A DNA stretch of 64,000 bases from Zoogloea sp. (GCA_016720685.1 JADKKC010000007.1:15426-79425), one strand, 5' to 3'; positions 23,092-33,810 are shown, counted from the first letter of the stretch. Numbers and translations are program-made. The notes: generated from the letters alone by a model not told the origin.

Positions 23092-23159
23092 ACACAACCC
23101 GCGCCCGCCAACTCGGGTAAAGTTGCGCCTTCGTTTTTTGCATCTCCGAAGGTACCCCG

Positions 23160-24944: not shown

Positions 24945-27191
24945 TCACGCGCTTTGACTTGGCCTGAGCGTAACCGTGGAGTTGTCGGAATACACAAACG
25001 GCGTTCCGTTGTAACCCCAGGTCCATTCGTTGAGTTTGGTTTGCTGGTGGATCAGGTCCATGCGCACCGCCGAGGTCTTGTCCAGAGCGTACCTGCCGAA
25101 CAGCTTCAGCGTGAATTGCTGGAAGGTGACGTCGGGAAGGCCGCCAAGACGGGACAAGAGCGTGCTGTTGGCCGTCGACCCACCTCTTTGCTTGTACTCG
25201 TCCCTGTCATCGATGAGCAGCAGATCGCCACCGACCTGGAGGCGACTCGTGGGCTTGCCGATCACACCGAACCCGTAACTGTCGCTGAGATTGCGCAGCG
25301 CGGCCAGGTAACCCGTGCTGTGATCCACGTGCATGGTCTGATCACCGCGAGACCAGTAGCCCGTGAGCTTCCAGTCTTCAGACAAGGCATAGGCGGCATC
25401 CACACCATAGAAGCCCATGTAGCTGCTTCTCAGGCCCTTGGTGCCCGGAGAGCTGAAATTATCCTGCCCCCACTCGGCCATGAACTGCAGCGACAGCTGG
25501 TCGGTGGCAGCCCAGTCGGCACTCATCTTGATCTTGTCCCGCTGCCGGTCAGTCATCGAAGAGGGGAAGATGCTATTGACCCCATAGATGCCGTTGTTGA
25601 AGGTGGCACATGCGGTGACCGAGGTCAGGGATGGATCTCCCACGATGACACCCCGGCCTGCGTCAGACAAGCCCCCCAGGCCGGTACAACTCAGGGACAG
25701 CGGCTTGAGCCAGGCCGATCCGCTGCGATGGCTGCTGGAATAGCCGATCGCACCGGTCAGGGTTTCGCTCATTGAACGGCGCAACTCCATTCTGTAGCCG
25801 GTTTCCTCACTCTTCTGGCGCAGGCCACTCAAACCGGCAACGGAGTTTGTGCTGACAAAAGTGCCACGATCAAGCGACTCGTAATTGAACCCCAGCGTCG
25901 CCCGATAGCCGTCAGGCAGCTGATAAGTGCCTTCAAGCTTGCCGTTCAGGCGCTTTGGTGAATAGTTGCCGTTGGTGAACGCTGTAGTCGCCGGATTGCC
26001 TTCGACGTTGTAGTAGGCGATAGGCGTCTTGTCGTTGCGGTCTTCGTAGCGGACATTGGCCAGCAGCGACAGCTTGGAGATCGGCCGCGACGTCAGGCCA
26101 AGCTGATACAGGCTGGTGTCGACCTTCGCGCCAAGATCGCTGCGGCCTCCGGGAGCCCCGCCGAACACGGAGAAATTGTCGGTCTGCGCGGCGTGGGTGT
26201 AGGCGTACTTGAAGTTGGCCTTGGTGGTCGGTGTGAACGCGTAATTGCCCGTCAGGTAAAACTGGTGCGCCTGACTATCCGGCGGCAGCGCAATGGGATT
26301 TTGCAACATGCCCCGCAAACCGGCGCCCAGCGCAGGCCCGTTGCCGGGGAGTCCCATCTGGTTTCCCAGCGGATTACTGAGCTCACCGTTGATGCTTGCT
26401 GCCATCGACTGATACTGGTTGCTGTAGAACGAGCCATAGTAGCCCCCCGACAGCATCAGCTTGTCGCTCGCGTAGTTGAGCTTCGCGTCGAACTGCTGGG
26501 TGCTCGAGTTGATCGGCTCGGGCAGCATGAGCTGCGCCCATTGGGTTACGCCGGTAGTACACAAGGGGGACGGCGCAGAGCCCGAGGGGCAGGCCATGCC
26601 GTTGCCGAACATCCGGGCACCGTTCTTGTCCTCGTTCCGGAAGCTGGCCTCGAACTGCAGCGAGGAACTCAGCCATTTTTCCAGGGCGATGGTGGTGTTC
26701 TTGCGCTTCAGCTCGAGGTTTACGTCAGAACCGCTACCTGCCGTAGCCAGCCGGGAGACCACCGGCGCGGTGCTGCCTGCGCCGACAAGGCTGGTGTTGA
26801 TGGTGCGCGGATCACGCCGGATCATCTCGTCGTATTCGAAGGAATACTTCCAGTCGCCCTGCTTTTGCTGGCCGAAGCGAATTTCCCGGGTGTCCAGCCC
26901 GAGGTTGCGCCCCTGGAGGGTGGTCCAGGTGCCGGTGGCGTCGTCGCGCTTGATGACGTCGAGGTCGAGCAGAAGATAGGCGTCCTGGCGGCGCAGGCCG
27001 TTGTATTGGCCAAAAATGCTGCGCTCGTTCTCGGCACCCGTCACCCCGGCAGCGCCGATGGAAACACTGCTGTCGGGACGGATCAGGGCGGCGATCTCGT
27101 CATCGGCCGCATGGGCCGAACCAAAGGCGGCAAGGAGGGCCAGCGCAACAATCTTGAGGCTGAAACCCGGGCGTGTTTGCAAGGTTCTCAT
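24945..27191 (-). CDS. mtoB: MtrB/PioB/MtoB family decahaem-associated outer-membrane beta-barrel protein
   Basis: 748 aa with a signal peptide (AAFGSAHA/AD). The sequence shows alternating beta-strand character, is rich in Y/G/N/S/T, and ends in an aromatic residue region. It lies immediately downstream of a decahaem cytochrome gene. Confidence 0.85.
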   Translation of the reverse strand: MRTLQTRPGFSLKIVALALLAAFGSAHAADDEIAALIRPDSSVSIGAAGVTGAENERSIFGQYNGLRRQDAYLLLDLDVIKRDDATGTWTTLQGRNLGLDTREIRFGQQKQGDWKYSFEYDEMIRRDPRTINTSLVGAGSTAPVVSRLATAGSGSDVNLELKRKNTTIALEKWLSSSLQFEASFRNEDKNGARMFGNGMACPSGSAPSPLCTTGVTQWAQLMLPEPINSSTQQFDAKLNYASDKLMLSGGYYGSFYSNQYQSMAASINGELSNPLGNQMGLPGNGPALGAGLRGMLQNPIALPPDSQAHQFYLTGNYAFTPTTKANFKYAYTHAAQTDNFSVFGGAPGGRSDLGAKVDTSLYQLGLTSRPISKLSLLANVRYEDRNDKTPIAYYNVEGNPATTAFTNGNYSPKRLNGKLEGTYQLPDGYRATLGFNYESLDRGTFVSTNSVAGLSGLRQKSEETGYRMELRRSMSETLTGAIGYSSSHRSGSAWLKPLSLSCTGLGGLSDAGRGVIVGDPSLTSVTACATFNNGIYGVNSIFPSSMTDRQRDKIKMSADWAATDQLSLQFMAEWGQDNFSSPGTKGLRSSYMGFYGVDAAYALSEDWKLTGYWSRGDQTMHVDHSTGYLAALRNLSDSYGFGVIGKPTSRLQVGGDLLLIDDRDEYKQRGGSTANSTLLSRLGGLPDVTFQQFTLKLFGRYALDKTSAVRMDLIHQQTKLNEWTWGYNGTPFVYSDNSTVTLRPSQSA

Positions 27192-27210
27192 GATGATTTC
27201 CCCTCGTCGA

Positions 27211-28203
27211 TCAACGCAGGTTGAACTGCGGAGTCGGATTCGTTGCGCTTGGGTTGTTGCTGCCGTGCACCTGGGTGTGGCAATTCACGCAACCCCGCGC
27301 CTGGGTGTAGTTGATGCCGGACTTGCCGCTCGAGTTGATGGTCGGCTGGGTCGGCAACTGGCCCCGCAACTGGGCGATCTGGCCACCATGCGGCGTGTGG
27401 CACTGATGGCACAGGAAGGGCGGCCGGGCTTTGAGCAGGCTTTCGGCAACGGTGCCGTGGGGGTTGTGGCAATTGCCGCAATCCTCGTTGACCGGCTCGT
27501 GGCTGTGTACGAAGGGGCCGCGCTTTTCCATGTGGCAGGTGTAGCAGGTCTCGACGACGCTATCGCGCTTGACCAGCTTGGGACCGATGGAGCCATGGGA
27601 GTTGTGGCAATCCGAGCAGGCAACCTTGCCTTCCATCACCGGGTGGTGGGAGGGCTTCATGACCTGGGCGCGCTGTTCCTTGTGGCAGGTGAAGCACACT
27701 TCGGGCTGGGTGCGCTTGTCGGCAACCTTGTCCTTGGCGGTGTGCAACTGGTGGCAGGAAGTGCAGGCCACGTCGGCACGCTGGTGGGCGCTGCCTTCCC
27801 AGTGCGAACGCTTGGCATCCTTCTTGTGGCAGGAGATGCAGGATTCGTTGCGGGCCTCGACCGGCGTTTTGGAGTTCTTGCCAAAACTGCGGTCGGTGGC
27901 CGGGCGCTCTTTGAGCTTGGCCGGATTGTTGGTGTGCAGGTCGCTGTCGCCGTGGCAATTGGTGCAGCTGGGCGTACGCCCGTCGGCCACGGTGCCATGC
28001 TTGGTCTTGCCGATGTGCAGGAGCTTGGGCTCGTCCGCCTCATCGTGGCAGGTGGTGCACTTGGCGTCGCCCTTGAGGACCAGATCCTTGGCGGGCGGCT
28101 TGGCGCCTGGCGAGGATGGGGCATCGGCAGCCACGGCGGCCGTGGTGCCGACTAGCGCCCCGAGCAAGGCGCACGAGGCCAACAACTGTCGCAGGAATTT
28201 CAT
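27211..28203 (-). CDS. mtoA: periplasmic decahaem c-type cytochrome, MtrA/PioA/MtoA (DmsE) family
   Basis: 330 aa with a signal peptide. There are exactly ten CXXCH motifs: CTTCH, CTNCH, CISCH, CTSCH, CFTCH, CSDCH, CYTCH, CGNCH, CHQCH and CVNCH. Confidence 0.9.
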   Translation of the reverse strand: MKFLRQLLASCALLGALVGTTAAVAADAPSSPGAKPPAKDLVLKGDAKCTTCHDEADEPKLLHIGKTKHGTVADGRTPSCTNCHGDSDLHTNNPAKLKERPATDRSFGKNSKTPVEARNESCISCHKKDAKRSHWEGSAHQRADVACTSCHQLHTAKDKVADKRTQPEVCFTCHKEQRAQVMKPSHHPVMEGKVACSDCHNSHGSIGPKLVKRDSVVETCYTCHMEKRGPFVHSHEPVNEDCGNCHNPHGTVAESLLKARPPFLCHQCHTPHGGQIAQLRGQLPTQPTINSSGKSGINYTQARGCVNCHTQVHGSNNPSATNPTPQFNLR

Positions 28204-28274
28204 TTTTTATCTCCCTTTTACTGACATCGCTTGTCGAAGCGCCCTGCAAGTCGGGCGCTCCGTTACTGAACGGC

Positions 28275-28625
28275 TTACTTGCCGAGGGACAGGATCCAGT
28301 CGGTCAGATTCTTGATCGCGGCCTTGTCCTTGGTCTTGATGACCTTGTGCTCCTCTTCCTTGCCGTCATCGAACTTCACCATTTCACCCGACGTGAGGTG
28401 ATGGAGCAGTTTGGCTTCGGCATCGGCCTTGCCCTTGAGCGACTTGGAAATCTCGGTCAGGGACTTGGCTTCCTTCTTCTTGTCCACGGCGTGGCACTTG
28501 AGGCAGCCTTCCTTCTTGGCCAGGGCCTGCGCTTCATCGGCGTCGAAGGCCAGCGCATTGGCGGACAGCAGCAGCCCTGAGGCACAGAGGCCGGAAATCA
28601 GGGGGGTAATCACGCGGAACTTCAT
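28275..28625 (-). CDS. secreted monohaem class I c-type cytochrome (MtoD-like position)
   Basis: 116 aa with a signal peptide and a single CLKCH motif. A Met candidate for the distal ligand is present (SGEMVKF). Confidence 0.75.
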   Translation of the reverse strand: MKFRVITPLISGLCASGLLLSANALAFDADEAQALAKKEGCLKCHAVDKKKEAKSLTEISKSLKGKADAEAKLLHHLTSGEMVKFDDGKEEEHKVIKTKDKAAIKNLTDWILSLGK

Positions 28626-28678
28626 GTGGGGTTTCTCCTTGAGGACAACGTACGACTTATTGGTTTGGGGAACGTGAA

Positions 28679-29292
28679 TCAGTGCTCGTACCAGCCGGTG
28701 AGCATCATCTTGAACAGGCTGGAAACCTTGGGCCCGACCGTGCCCAGGTAGATGTGGCTCACCATGAACAACAGGATCACCGCCGCGCCGATGTAATGCA
28801 GCATCGCGATGGGCAGGAGCCCGTCGAGCCCGAAGAGCTTGTCGGGGGCGAACTGGGGATAGAGGAAGACCAGCCCGGTCAGGATCACCACCGGAAGCAC
28901 CATGTACATGATCGACCAGTAAGTGAGAGCCTGCAGGACGTTGAAATTGACCTCGGGGTCGGCGGATAGGGCTCGGGCTCGCCCTTGAAGATGCCGCTGC
29001 CGTAGTACTTCATCTGCGTCAGGCAACGCTTGATGATGCCGGGCGGCTTCGGGATGTACTGCCACCAGTTGCCGGTGACGATGTTGCCGGTCATGAAGAC
29101 CACCCACAGCCCGGCGAGGATGACGCCGGCCACGTTATGGATGCGCGCCGCCAGCGAAAACTCCACCAGCGGAAGGTTCGGATCGGAAAAGTGCAGGCTG
29201 ATGCCGGTGATCGACAGGGCGATGATCGCCAGGGCATTGCCCCAGTGCCACAGCCTGATCCACAGGTGAAGGATGCAAACGCGATTAGTCAT
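28679..29292 (-). pseudogene. dihaem b-type cytochrome (HydC/FdnI/PhsC, cytochrome b561-like family), 1-nt frameshift
   Basis: The N-terminal half is ORF 28885..29292 (MTNRVCILHLWIRLWHWGNAL...RIHNVAG...). The C-terminal half is ORF 28679..29107 (...NFNVLQALTYW...MLHYIGA...VSHIYLG). The frames switch at about 28955..28965. There are four conserved His residues on four TM helices. Confidence 0.75.
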
Positions 29293-30255
29293 GGTTTTTA
29301 CTCCGGCGCAGACGGGTCATGATGACGCGCACGAGGCCGTGGCCGATCACGCCCGCCAGCGTGGCGACAAACAGGCCGATCAGGATCATGTCGAGGGTGG
29401 GGCTGCGGGTAGCACCCACCACATAGGAGTTGCTCAGGATCACGCTGTTGAGGAAGCCGTACTTGTTCTGCTCCTCGGTGGCCAGATGGCGATACAAGCG
29501 CGCATTGAGCGAGCTGTTGGCGCTGTGGCAGGTGGCGCACTTCTTCTCGGCCTTGTCCTTGTTCTGGATCTCGTGGGAGAGGGAGAGCTTGTCTTCGGTG
29601 GGCGTGTGGCACTCGATGCAGCGCACGGCCTTCCAGTGCAGGCGGGTGTTGGGCAGCCAGTCATGGATGTCGTCGATGGGCGGCCGCTTTTTCTTGTCCG
29701 GCGCCATCTTCGCAAAGGCCAGATCCGAATCGTGGCAATCGAGACAGATCTTGTTGTCCTGGGCCACGATCTTGTGCGGATCGCGCAACTTGGCGGCCAG
29801 GGTCATGGAGTGCGCGTCGTGGCAGGTGACGCAGGTGAAGGTTTCGCTGAGGTTCTCGGCGTGCACCGACTTGTCGAACTGGCGTTCGATGCGCATCGCC
29901 TTGCGGGCGTGGCAGTCCTGGCATTCACTCAGGCTGTCCTTGGCGTCGGCCTCGTGGGGGTGTTCGTCGTAGCCGTCGCCGTGGCACTTGGTACAGGCCA
30001 TCTGGCCGTGGTCGGACGCCGTGTAGGTGTCCAGATGAACCAGGTGGCTACGCAGCTTCTTGAGATCCAGCCCTTCCTTCGGGGGCTTCTTGAGCCCTGC
30101 TTCCGAGTGGCAGGCCAGGCATTTTCCGTTGGCTGCCTGGATTTTTACGAGTTCTTCGGGGACGGTGGGGGTTCGTCGGCGAAGGCCGGCGGCGCGGCCA
30201 TCAGGGCCAGCAGTGCCAACGCTCCACGCAGTTTTCTACTTATCTTGCTAAACAC
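29285..30255 (-). pseudogene. heptahaem c-type cytochrome with signal peptide and C-terminal membrane anchor, 1-nt frameshift after the signal peptide
   Basis: A GAGGAG RBS and GTG at 30255 give VFSKISRKLRGALALLALMAAPPAFADEPPPSP. The frame then shifts at the G-run 30158..30161 into ...EELVKIQAANGKCLACH...MACTKCH.... The 7 CXXCH motifs are CLACH, CTKCH, CQDCH, CVTCH, CLDCH, CIECH and CATCH. A TM helix (LDMILIGLFVATLAGVIGHGLV) is near the C-terminus. The stop overlaps the cytochrome b start by 8 nt. Confidence 0.75.
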
Positions 30256-30340
30256 ATCAACTCCTCGGGCTACTAACCCGGCGGATTATCGACTTCCCTC
30301 TTTATTTCCAAATGTATCAGTACCCAAAACTGACATTCTC

Positions 30341-30354
30341 TTGATCAAGATCAA
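30341..30354. promoter_or_regulatory. perfect FNR/Anr/Dnr-type box TTGATCAAGATCAA
   Basis: Matches TTGAT-N4-ATCAA exactly. Its centre lies ~92 nt upstream of the GTG start at 30255. A TACATT -10 candidate (30311..30316) would put the box near -42/-44 of a class II promoter. Confidence 0.65.
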
Positions 30355-31660: not shown

Positions 31661-31987
31661 ATGACAAAAACCGGCTGGCTGGCGCTCGTCGCAGCCGTGC
31701 TGCTCGGCGCCCCGGCCTGCGCCGGAACCGGGCAGCCGACGCACCCACTCCAGGTAATCATCGGCTTTGCCGACCCCACCGACGGCGCCGCGCCCGCCAC
31801 CCTCGCGGCGCTCAAAAAAACGAGCGGCGCCAGGGTGAACTTCGTATCGTCGATCTCCGAGCGCAGCCACGCCTACCAGCTGCTTTGTGCTGCCGGCGAC
31901 CCGGCCTGCAGCAAGGCCATTGCGGCGCTCAGGGCAGACCCTTCCATCCGGCAGCTGGATCTCGATCAAAAAAAGGATTTGCGATGA
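31661..31987 (+). CDS. small secreted protein, possible protease propeptide/inhibitor-like partner of the downstream subtilase
   Basis: ATG at 31661 gives a signal peptide (MTKTGWLALVAAVLLGAPACAG). The stop overlaps the ATG of the S8 gene (ATGA), implying translational coupling. The weak resemblance of VIIGFAD...ALKKTSGARVNFV to I9-type propeptides is inference. Confidence 0.5.
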   Translation: MTKTGWLALVAAVLLGAPACAGTGQPTHPLQVIIGFADPTDGAAPATLAALKKTSGARVNFVSSISERSHAYQLLCAAGDPACSKAIAALRADPSIRQLDLDQKKDLR

Positions 31988-33810
31988 AAACCGTTCTCAC
32001 ACTTTGCACAGCCCTGCTGGGGCTGGGCGCGCTGCTCGCCGGCCCTGCCGCAGCCGAGGAGGCCCCCGAGGCGCGGGTCATCGTCAAGCTCAAGCCAGGG
32101 TCACCGCTCAAGCAGATCCAGGCCACCAGCCGGATGAAAAGCCTGGGAGAACGCATCGGCATCACGGCAAAAATGCTCGGCCAGCCCTCGCCCGAACTCC
32201 AGGTGATGCGCGCCAGCGGCATCAGCTCCGAGGCCCTGGCAAGCAGGCTATCCAGAGAATACGACGTGGAATACGCGGTGCCCGACCGCATCAAGCGGAT
32301 CAAGGCCCTGCCCAATGATCCGCTGTTCAGCCACCAGTGGTACCTGCAGGCAGCCAGCCCCACCCAGCTCGCCGCCACCAACGCCCAGGCGGCGTGGGAC
32401 ATCACCTCCGGCACCAGCAACGTGGTGGTTGCGGTGGTGGATACCGGTGTGCGCTTCGAGCACGAGGACCTGACCGCCAAGCTCTTGCCAGGCTACGACT
32501 TCGTGCTCGACGACCTTAACTCCGGCGACGGCCAGCCCGGCCGTGACACCGACGCCTCGGACCCCGGCGACTACCTGTCCACCTCCGATGTCGCCAACGC
32601 CACCCTGCGCGCCATGTGCGGCGGCAGCTTTGCAACCCACAACAGCTCGTGGCACGGCACCCAGGTTGCCGGCATCGTCGCGGCAGAAGCCAACAATTCC
32701 CGCGGCATCGCCGGCATTGGCGGCGCCACCCGCATCCTGCCGATTCGCGCGCTCGGCAAATGTGGCGGCTACGACTCGGACATCATCGCCGGCATGCGCT
32801 GGGCCGCCGGCCTTGCGGTGCCGGGCCTCCCCGCCAACCCGAATCCAGCCCGGATCATCAACCTGAGCCTGGCCGGTGAAGGCACTTGCAGCTCCGCTTA
32901 CGCCAGCGTCGTCGCCGAAATCAGGGCGGTGGGCGCCTTGATCGTGGCGGCCGCCGGCAACGAAACCAGCCCGGTCGAAGAGCCCGCCAACTGCGCCGGC
33001 GTCCTCGGCGTGGCCGGCATCCGCCACATGGGCACCAAGGTGGGCTATTCGAGCTACGGCCCCGAAGTCGGCATCAGCGCCCCGGCCGGCAACTGCGTCA
33101 ACATTCTTACCGGCCAGCCCTGCCTGTTTCCCTTCGTCAATACCATCAACCTGGGCCTGAACGGCCCGCTCGGCAACGGCTACACCGGCGTCAACGACGT
33201 AACGATCGGCACCAGCTTTGCCGTGCCGCTGGTGTCGGGCACGGCCGCGCTGATGCTGGCGGCCAATCCCCTGCTCGGCGAATCCGAGCTGATGGCGCGC
33301 ATCAAGCGCGCAGCCACGGCCTTTCCCGTCGATGCCACCCTGCCCACCTGCCCCGCCGTAACGGCTGACGGCCAGTGCAACTGCACCACCACCACCTGCG
33401 GCGCCGGCATGCTCGATACCGCCGCCGCCGTGGCGCTGGCCCTCGAACCCACAGCCGGCATCACGGTATCCGCAGCGCCCGTCGTCAACACGGCAATCAC
33501 CCTGACCGCAGCCTCCAACGTGTCGCCCGTGAGCTGGCAATGGATCCAGATCAGCGGCCCAGCCACTGGCAGCTTCGGCTCGCCTGCGGCAGCAAGCACC
33601 ACCTTCACCGCCACGTCGGCCGGCAGCTACACGATCCGCCTGACGATCACAGACGCGATCGGGCGCACGACCAGCGCCGACGCCAGCCTCACCGTTGCAT
33701 CCGCCCCGTCCTCGGGCGGCGGCGGAGGGGGCGGCGCCACCGATCTCGCCAGCCTCACCGGCATCCTCGCGCTGGCGCTCTTCGCGGCAAACCGGCGCAA
33801 CCGGGCCTGA
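31984..33810 (+). CDS. secreted S8 family serine peptidase (subtilase) with N-terminal propeptide and GlyGly-CTERM-like tail
   Basis: ATG at 31984 gives a signal peptide, followed by a propeptide (RVIVKLKPG...). The catalytic triad contexts are VAVVDTGV, HGTQVAGIVAA and GTSFAVPLVSG. The C-terminus has a poly-Gly run, a hydrophobic helix (LTGILALALFAA) and a basic end (NRRNRA). Confidence 0.9.
   Translation: MKTVLTLCTALLGLGALLAGPAAAEEAPEARVIVKLKPGSPLKQIQATSRMKSLGERIGITAKMLGQPSPELQVMRASGISSEALASRLSREYDVEYAVPDRIKRIKALPNDPLFSHQWYLQAASPTQLAATNAQAAWDITSGTSNVVVAVVDTGVRFEHEDLTAKLLPGYDFVLDDLNSGDGQPGRDTDASDPGDYLSTSDVANATLRAMCGGSFATHNSSWHGTQVAGIVAAEANNSRGIAGIGGATRILPIRALGKCGGYDSDIIAGMRWAAGLAVPGLPANPNPARIINLSLAGEGTCSSAYASVVAEIRAVGALIVAAAGNETSPVEEPANCAGVLGVAGIRHMGTKVGYSSYGPEVGISAPAGNCVNILTGQPCLFPFVNTINLGLNGPLGNGYTGVNDVTIGTSFAVPLVSGTAALMLAANPLLGESELMARIKRAATAFPVDATLPTCPAVTADGQCNCTTTTCGAGMLDTAAAVALALEPTAGITVSAAPVVNTAITLTAASNVSPVSWQWIQISGPATGSFGSPAAASTTFTATSAGSYTIRLTITDAIGRTTSADASLTVASAPSSGGGGGGGATDLASLTGILALALFAANRRNRA

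Follow-up and report, generated by a model that had tools for sequence, protein, structure and literature searches.

A probable mtoABCD-type porin-cytochrome conduit in Zoogloea with a split heptahaem cytochrome c/cytochrome b module

By which route could electrons pass between the quinone pool and the cell surface in Zoogloea, the dominant floc formers of wastewater that are also found on bioelectrochemical anodes? The question is raised by five consecutive, co-directional genes on the minus strand (24945-30255) of a DNA stretch of 64,000 nucleotides (nt) from Zoogloea sp. (GCA_016720685.1 JADKKC010000007.1:15426-79425), which is termed the window in the following and whose positions are counted from its first letter. 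In the order of transcription, the genes encode a heptahaem c-type cytochrome (c7), a four-helix cytochrome b, a homologue of the monohaem cytochrome MtoD, a decahaem cytochrome of the MtoA/MtrA type and an outer-membrane porin of the MtoB/PioB type (c7-b-mtoD-mtoA-mtoB). An initial annotation had taken the cluster for a self-contained pathway from the quinone pool to the cell surface, with a hybrid composition not known from any described system. The first part of this proposal is supported by the analyses reported here, which lead us to consider the cluster a probable Zoogloea version of the mtoABCD-type porin-cytochrome conduit, encoded on one operon. The second part cannot be upheld, as the same five-gene Zoogloea cluster has been pictured before (PMC8258643) and related clusters containing MtoC or MtrH are on record (PMC6295460, PMC5566968).

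Judged by profile matches, the two distal genes represent a porin-cytochrome pair of the MtoAB/PioAB type without MtrC, just as originally assigned. The product of mtoB (24945..27191, minus strand) is a full-length family match to TIGR03509 (341.4 bits, cut-off 240.05) and to PF11854 (MtrB_PioB; 412.3 bits, cut-off 23), and phmmer found no relative for it in the PDB. Upstream of it lies mtoA (27211..28203, minus strand), which ends 19 nt before mtoB, such that the porin gene directly adjoins that for a decahaem cytochrome of the DmsE family. The periplasmic MtoA protein comprises 330 amino acids (aa), falls within the length range of the family (~300-350 aa), carries a signal peptide and exactly ten CXXCH motifs, scores 281.1 bits on TIGR03508 (cut-off 192.2) and matches MtrA in the MtrCAB structure 6R2Q from Shewanella with an E value of 3.8e-64. 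At least 23 metagenome contigs encode an identical MtoA protein, and its closest relatives stem from Oxalobacteraceae (68% identity). The gene preceding mtoA (28275..28625, minus strand) encodes the secreted class I monohaem cytochrome c with a single CLKCH motif that had been noticed at the outset. This protein of 116 aa is a homologue of Sideroxydans MtoD (PDB 4XXL, E 1.2e-30, residues 9-114), it is 44% identical to the product of an MtoD-like gene situated next to an MtoC-like gene in an Oxalobacteraceae locus (L089), and it accompanies the pair formed by c7 and cytochrome b (c7+b) in most of the loci that carry mtoAB.

With regard to the inner-membrane side, the first gene of the cluster (c7, 29285..30255, minus strand) starts with a GTG at 30255 that is preceded by a ribosome-binding site (GAGGAG, 30266-30261). 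When intact, as in assemblies 99% identical to the window, c7 is a protein of 323 aa with seven CXXCH motifs, a signal peptide ending in AFA-DE and a C-terminal transmembrane helix (residues 291-309) followed by a basic tail. All seven CXXCH motifs plus seven further histidines are invariant among 17 homologues. Profile searches with c7 returned generic multihaem Pfam families only; its scores on the NapC/NirT model PF03264 (17 bits, cut-off 24.1) and on TIGR02161 (16.8 bits, cut-off 310.6) stay below and far below the respective thresholds, its anchor is C-terminal, and the window contains no open reading frame (ORF) with CXXCH motifs beyond those for c7, MtoD and MtoA. This agrees with the earlier statement that a CymA of the NapC/NirT type is absent.

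The second gene (28679..29292, minus strand) specifies a cytochrome b of 204 aa in its intact form, as found in relatives, which scores 81 bits on PF01292 (cut-off 30.1). A sequence search of the PDB with this protein yielded spurious antibody matches only and a comparison of folds was thus needed: the AlphaFold (AF2) model (pLDDT 81) has its best match in FdnI (1KQF_C, TM-score 0.68), followed by HyaC and CybB. All 71 sequences compared share five histidines (His16/34/52/166/180), two of which form an HX13H pair in helix 4. On these grounds, the protein is placed in the prokaryotic cytochrome b561/FdnI-HyaC family PF01292, with predicted ligands for two b haems and a predicted role as quinone-binding subunit. 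PhsC, the cytochrome b of thiosulfate reductase, is its best NCBIfam match and was considered as an identity; it was rejected, as the score on NF011582 (156.7 bits) is lower than the cut-off of 204 and phsAB genes are not located nearby. A Cbc-like quinone module, as first suggested, is therefore supported by an FdnI/HyaC-like b subunit as well as by the conserved linkage to mtoAB described below, and the profile searches as a whole bear out the families originally expected (MtrB/PioB, DmsE, PF01292 and multihaem c).

The spacing of the five genes is as tight as initially described. The genes for c7 and cytochrome b overlap by 8 nt (ATGACTAA, the last 8 nt of c7), and the remaining gaps amount to 53 nt (b/mtoD), 71 nt (mtoD/mtoA) and 19 nt (mtoA/mtoB). 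No terminator-like hairpin was detected on the coding strand in these three intergenic gaps, and we infer from this arrangement that all five genes are co-transcribed. Nor is the gene set assembled by chance, since the same set recurs in dozens of genomes.

How does the c7+b pair relate to known quinone modules? Fused c7-b proteins of ~530 aa were encountered three times in a first search (P0095, P0101 and P0105), and among 1,140 matches retrieved with HMMER at E<1e-3 many representatives of 500-550 aa match over their full length. Together with the constant adjacency of the two genes and a junction at which they overlap by 8 nt or are a few nt apart, these common fusions support the view that c7+b may be regarded as a single functional unit. 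As a comparator of the MtoC type, standing in for CbcL, Daro_1404 and Galf_2006, we used a protein of 681 aa from locus L089 that was reached via the closest relatives of MtoA; there, mtrA-mtrB is followed by the gene for this protein, which contains nine haem sites and six transmembrane helices, and then by the MtoD-like gene. Its assignment to the MtoC family was made by architecture and haem spacing, not by name, and the haem spacing reproduces the published MtoC table. When a profile of fused c7-b proteins, shallow with its three sequences, was compared with this protein using hhalign, the two aligned with a probability of 98.1% (E 6.9e-14) over 441 colinear columns that span the first haem and the anchor helix and extend into the b domain. 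Accordingly, c7 corresponds to the c domain plus the first transmembrane helix of an MtoC/CbcL-like protein. CbcL, MtoC and MtrH are single polypeptides with about nine haems and six transmembrane helices; the Zoogloea module is divided between two genes and has seven CXXCH motifs and one plus four transmembrane helices. What it shares with them is homology over both the c and the b domain in the profile comparison with the L089 protein, and clustering with mtoAB or mtrAB and mtoD in the window and in 36 of 80 related loci. From these comparisons we conclude that c7+b is a compact, split and remote relative of CbcL/MtoC/MtrH and no unrelated invention. The L089 locus itself (L089:1-15046, Oxalobacteraceae, CP176528.1) is a dense island of several conduits with three MtrB_PioB porin genes and two decahaem genes, in which, besides the MtoC-type and MtoD-like genes, an EB_dh protein of 441 aa adjoins one of the porin-cytochrome pairs.

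To compare gene neighborhoods, one genome per GTDB species was scanned, which resulted in 80 loci, and these were screened by tblastn with the five products of the window. Wherever a locus extends far enough downstream of c7, the b gene lies next to it, and in 36 of the 80 species-level genomes the pair adjoins mtoAB. These 36 genomes belong to Zoogloea, Uliginosibacterium, Propionivibrio, Niveibacterium and metagenome-assembled genomes (MAGs) of Rhodocyclaceae. The order of the genes differs: c7-b-mtoD-mtoA-mtoB is found in Zoogloea and mtoA-mtoB-c7-b-mtoD in Propionivibrio, Uliginosibacterium and Rhodocyclaceae MAGs, two Uliginosibacterium genomes feature c7-b-mtoD separated from mtoA-mtoB by a 3-kb insert, and the arrangement is convergent in Niveibacterium-like loci. 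A linkage that survives such rearrangement argues for a functional partnership of c7+b with mtoAB. Within Zoogloea, the whole locus is common to Z. oleivorans, Z. oryzae, Z. dura and many MAGs; the c7 of the window shares 98% identity with its counterpart in a Zoogloea sp. MAG, and the c7-b-mtoD segment is generally 74-91% identical to the window. The MtoAB proteins at the same locus position fall into two classes (L013-L017, L019-L021, L023-L026, L028 and L029 versus L009-L012, L018, L022 and L027), one with ~85-100% (MtoA) and 66-99% (MtoB) and the other with ~65% and ~30% identity to the window. As c7-b-mtoD remains constant next to both classes, the outer-membrane module appears to have been swapped within Zoogloea while the inner-membrane module was retained.

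In the loci without mtoAB, c7+b is mostly followed by a gene for an EB_dh-type haem-b protein (PF09459). Eight of them, from Rhodocyclales and Burkholderiales (L052, L062, L065, L070, L075 and L079 as well as L086 and L088; e.g., L062:8950-15886), also encode an ArrA-like molybdoenzyme and an Fe-S subunit, plus a TorD-like chaperone where the contig is long enough. In these loci c7+b heads the operon, and genes for PhnD-like proteins, histidine kinases and sigma-54 regulators are found nearby. Two of the eight (L086 and L088) have an MtoD-like gene instead of the EB_dh gene, which in L088 is located directly between those for cytochrome b and the alpha subunit. The alpha subunit matches ArrA (6CZ7, E 1.4e-271) and scores 1019 bits on the ArrA model NF041714, below its cut-off of 1600. 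The enzyme had first been assigned as the arsenite oxidase ArxA on account of its PhnD-like, histidine kinase and sigma-54 neighbors; this was dropped, as ArrX-type sensors exist and Sulfuritalea is treated as an arrA organism, and the enzyme is left as a member of the ArrA/ArxA clade. Three-gene c7-b-EB_dh units, for which no molybdoenzyme was detected by tblastn in the fetched flanks, are present in 14 further loci (L044, L049, L050, L057, L058, L061, L063, L064, L067, L071-L074 and L078) from hosts that include Dechloromonas sp. H13, Sulfuritalea and Magnetospirillum. They mostly occur downstream of two-component sensor genes, either for a dCache kinase with a sigma-54 regulator or for a PhnD-like protein, a HAMP kinase and a sigma-54 regulator, the two Magnetospirillum loci lacking such genes. 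In four loci, finally (L076, L081, L082 and L083; e.g., L083:4432-10502), one of them from Candidatus Accumulibacter sp. 66-26, a different molybdoenzyme of the Psr/Phs/Arr clade, whose best NCBIfam match is PhsA at 267 bits and thus far below the cut-off, has its gene, along with those for an Fe-S subunit and a chaperone, immediately upstream of c7+b.

CymA of Shewanella ANA-3 supplies both ArrAB and the Mtr system with electrons (PMC2762525). Being found with MtoAB or with ArrA-like enzymes, c7+b likewise behaves like a hub of the CymA type. With even confidence for and against, we propose that c7+b constitutes a widespread, uncharacterised family of inner-membrane quinol:cytochrome c oxidoreductases, with ~1,100 split and fused representatives at E<1e-3, that serves as a portable CymA-like hub in Rhodocyclales and relatives, has repeatedly been coupled to two divergent MtoAB types, to ArrA/ArxA-like enzymes (via an EB_dh or MtoD-like cytochrome) and to another molybdoenzyme, and is under FNR-type control in Zoogloea.

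This control is suggested by a palindromic box of the FNR/CRP family, TTGATCTTGATCAA, located at 30341..30354 (no strand assigned), with its center 93 nt upstream of the c7 start codon. It is the sole perfect TTGAT-N4-ATCAA site in the window. In 20 of the 21 Zoogloea-type loci (L009-L029; L010 comes without upstream DNA) the half-sites are kept, the 4-nt spacer is variable and the distance stays within 90-102 nt, mostly at 93 nt, a pattern typical of a binding site under selection, and a conserved box of this type was found only upstream of c7. A TACATT sequence at ~30316-30311, read by eye, could form the -10 element in a class II FNR geometry; a sigma-70 promoter scan reported nothing in the region and the promoter proposal accordingly goes back to the FNR box. 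On the basis of the conserved box and the terminator-free gaps, we propose that one c7-b-mtoD-mtoA-mtoB transcript is induced under anaerobic or microoxic conditions. The operon would thus probably respond to oxygen limitation, the box implying regulation by oxygen or nitric oxide (NO). A second, imperfect FNR-like site with one mismatch (TGGATCTCGATCAA, 31956-31969) is present in the window just inside the start of the longest ORF for the peptidase S8 (31885..33810) and upstream of the likely, shorter start of that gene.

Taken together, the proteins suggest the following path, in which the contacts between them, the role of MtoD and the direction of flow are inferred. The dihaem cytochrome b with its FdnI/HyaC fold would exchange electrons with the pool of quinones and pass them across the inner membrane to or from the anchored, periplasmic c7, so that c7+b would fill the position held by CymA in Shewanella, as a split and shortened relative of CbcL/MtoC/MtrH. 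The periplasm would be crossed directly or possibly by way of the MtoD-type monohaem cytochrome, and the decahaem MtoA, threaded through the MtoB barrel, would expose haems at the cell surface. Several points weigh against this picture. The search for CXXCH ORFs revealed no surface cytochrome of the MtrC type in the window, which renders the cluster a closer match to the electron-uptake systems MtoAB and PioAB than to the Mtr reducers. In Sideroxydans ES-1, MtoD (+155 mV) did not interact in vitro with either MtoA or the CymA-like ImoA (PMC13390432), and a shuttle function of the Zoogloea homologue is therefore doubtful and to be treated as unproven. The homology to MtoC comes from one comparison with a three-sequence profile, the enrichment of Zoogloea on an anode is a correlation at the community level, our literature searches turned up no experimental work on the c7+b family, and three indels disrupt reading frames in the copy at hand.

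We agree with the initial annotation that the direction of flow is not readable from sequence. Outward flow, from quinol to an extracellular acceptor, appears slightly the more probable in Zoogloea; it is favored by the anode enrichment (PMC8258643) and by the co-occurrence of c7+b and ArrA-like enzymes in lineages that are considered to respire arsenate, and the system may be reversible. Possible as well, although we place it below even, is the operation of the same machinery inward: MtoAB would be the site at which Fe(II), a reduced mineral or a cathode is oxidised, and electrons would travel via MtoD and c7 to quinone at cytochrome b, or would leave MtoD for a terminal oxidase or denitrification enzyme of high potential. 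A flow of this kind has been suggested for Dechloromonas and for the Mto systems found in Gallionellaceae, and it is in line with the Mto ancestry of the cluster, with the lack of an MtrC-type extracellular cytochrome in the window that is shared with MtoAB and PioAB, and with a close homologue of the high-potential MtoD of strain ES-1. Fe(II) oxidisers are among the hosts of MtoC-type modules, modules of the CbcL/MtoC type are regarded as reversible, and an FNR box would suit nitrate-dependent Fe(II) oxidation. On the other hand, the anode on which Zoogloea was enriched accepts electrons, and arsenate respiration, as reported for lineages in which c7+b accompanies ArrA-like enzymes, needs a quinol dehydrogenase, though those enzymes may be ArxA.

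A further question is whether the source strain possesses a working conduit at all. Five independent metagenome assemblies, 99.2-99.5% identical to the window over up to 13 kb, and a Zoogloea MAG from GTDB served as reference and exposed three frame-disrupting indels that the initial annotation had missed. In the window, c7 is FRAMESHIFTED by a 1-nt deletion that shortens a C5 run to C4 (30158-30161), and the gene for cytochrome b is likewise FRAMESHIFTED by such a deletion at 28955-28958. In mtoB, the insertion of CG at 24948-24952 creates a premature TGA that stops the frame 12 codons early and costs the protein its last 13 residues. The MtoB of the window thus ends with ...SQSA after 748 aa and is devoid of the C-terminal strand of a complete barrel; all other members of the cluster comprise 760 aa and end with ...SQSVTYLGATYIVALP or ...VTYLGATYIVALP, and 760 aa would also result here without the insertion, the frame then continuing to ~24907. 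The first description of the three genes therefore holds in part: c7 has its seven CXXCH motifs, signal peptide and C-terminal anchor, cytochrome b its four helices and conserved histidines, and the 748-aa protein is an MtrB/PioB porin of that length as deposited, yet the porin is a truncated form and the intervals for c7 (971 nt) and cytochrome b (614 nt), neither of them a multiple of three, bridge a frameshift. Because of the frameshifts the deposited window carries only fragments of both, i.e., a 36-codon piece plus an ORF of 238 aa for c7 and ORFs of 135 and 142 aa for cytochrome b. In short, the deposited sequence encodes no intact conduit and close relatives do, with intact genes in assemblies 99.4% identical and in 20 other Zoogloea genomes. 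This copy is either mis-sequenced or non-functional.

That the operon of the source strain is a decaying pseudogene cluster, in which genuine slipped-strand mutations have inactivated c7, cytochrome b and the last beta-strand of MtoB, is conceivable, but we regard it as the less probable of these two explanations. All three coding indels of the shared 13 kb lie inside the 5.3-kb cluster and none in flanking coding DNA, only two of 35 homopolymer runs of at least 5 nt differ from the reference assemblies, which gives no sign of a wholesale homopolymer problem, and the 238-aa c7 and 748-aa MtoB forms are recorded solely from the window's own NCBI entry. However, changes from C5 to C4 and from GCG to GCGCG are also classic sequencing or assembly errors, the clustering of indels (four in 13 kb) is suggestive and not significant with values of ~0.07-0.2 by simple estimates, and no further trace of decay, e.g., a stop codon or a large deletion, is seen, MtoA and MtoD being 100% identical to those of intact relatives. 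The fourth indel, the sole non-coding one in the 13 kb, is a single base at 23138 in an A-rich spacer between the genes for the ABC exporter and ABC-F. Exact-protein look-ups of two flanking proteins of the window gave no match, so that the choice between error and mutation depends on the 13 kb, and a heuristic based on GC3 frame switches was too noisy to estimate the frameshift rate across the window. The GTDB Zoogloea MAG (L009) possesses a 1-nt indel of its own in mtoA (~11250, corresponding to ~27995 in the window), leaving only residues 71-330 to align; frame errors hence occur in comparison assemblies, too.

That c7+b is no partner of MtoAB but serves another periplasmic enzyme such as a thiosulfate or arsenate reductase and adjoins mtoD-mtoA-mtoB by accident is highly improbable: the JGI annotation of the b subunit as 'thiosulfate reductase cytochrome b subunit', its top NCBIfam rank for PhsC and the molybdoenzymes beside the pair in other genomes speak for it, but the PhsC score misses its cut-off (157 versus 204), no gene for a molybdoenzyme, molybdopterin or Fe-S subunit is present in the Zoogloea cluster or its flanks (MOSC, ABC-F, ABC exporter and peptidase S8 genes), in 36 genomes the pair has stayed next to mtoAB through rearrangements of the locus, the analogous linkage of MtoC with mtoABD is established in the literature, and neither a terminator in the gaps nor a conserved regulatory box other than that upstream of c7 sets the pair apart as an unrelated operon.

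A porin-cytochrome conduit of the Mto type that is well defined and probably regulated by oxygen would explain the occurrence of Zoogloea on anodes and provide a genetic handle; if this is true, c7+b under FNR control would give floc formers of activated sludge an anaerobic route for extracellular electron transfer. Beside CymA/NapC and the fused CbcL/MtoC, the split c7+b looks like a third widely used solution for connecting the quinone pool with the periplasm. No current model is overturned by these findings. They rather extend the known modularity of Mtr/Mto systems to a module that is reused with porin-cytochromes and with arsenic-type molybdoenzymes. New content is modest and consists of the homology to MtoC, the breadth of the split and fused family, its further use beside arsenic-type molybdoenzymes, the replacement of MtoAB types within Zoogloea and the conserved FNR-type box.

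The Zoogloea cluster is a variant, with a split module, seven haems and a four-helix b subunit, of the known mtoABCD theme that has already been pictured for this genus. Ouboter et al. (2021; Biofilm 3:100054; PMC8258643) reported a Zoogloea MAG that rose 720-fold on an anode at +400 mV and contains genes for an MtrB/PioB protein, a DmsE-like decahaem cytochrome, one b-type cytochrome as well as two of the c type, with seven CXXCH motifs in one of these. Likened by description, genus and all five genes agree, the other c-type cytochrome being the monohaem protein; the authors noted the b-type and the two c-type cytochromes as lacking characterised homologues and gave no comparative analysis, and the copy in the window differs by its three indels. 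Descriptions of mtoAB and mtoD clusters with a CbcL-like b+c module date from 2012 and 2018 onwards: the CbcL homologues MtoC, in Dechloromonas aromatica RCB (Daro_1404) and Gallionella ES-2 (Galf_2006), and MtrH, in Rhodoferax, have their genes in mtoAB(D) clusters (PMC6295460, PMC5566968), and the genes are linked in this way in seven further species (He 2017, Zhong and Shi 2018, Baker 2022), the list of Zhong and Shi (2018) not including Zoogloea, Uliginosibacterium or Propionivibrio.

Among more distant systems, PioABC contains a gene (pioC) for an iron-sulfur protein of high potential (HiPIP), whereas all five Zoogloea products belong to other families, consistent with the absence of such a protein from the cluster as originally noted. 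Shewanella CymA and Sideroxydans ImoA (NapC/NirT) occupy the same position as hubs between the quinone pool and periplasmic or outer-membrane partners, but their architecture, a tetrahaem c with an N-terminal anchor and without b subunit, is unrelated, and c7 remains below the NapC/NirT cut-offs. With FdnI and HyaC of Escherichia coli, the cytochrome b has in common the fold, four transmembrane helices and the histidine pattern for two b haems including HX13H, at an identity of ~16-19%; the E. coli proteins are paired with an Fe-S partner of formate dehydrogenase or hydrogenase, and the Zoogloea protein with a membrane-anchored multihaem c. CbcL of Geobacter sulfurreducens, compared by description only, also combines a multihaem c with a HydC/FdnI-like dihaem b as inner-membrane quinol oxidoreductase for extracellular electron transfer, but is fused, has nine haems and six transmembrane helices and works with Pcc-type instead of Mtr-type complexes. 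The closest counterparts are the mtoABCD clusters of the MtoC type, which share MtoA, MtoB and MtoD, a module of multihaem c and FdnI/HydC-like b in place of CymA, and the colinear order of c domain, transmembrane helix and b domain. They differ in that MtoC is one chain of ~655-680 aa with nine haem sites and six transmembrane helices, whereas Zoogloea employs two genes for 323 plus 204 aa with seven haems and one plus four helices, and the similarity is detectable by profile methods only.

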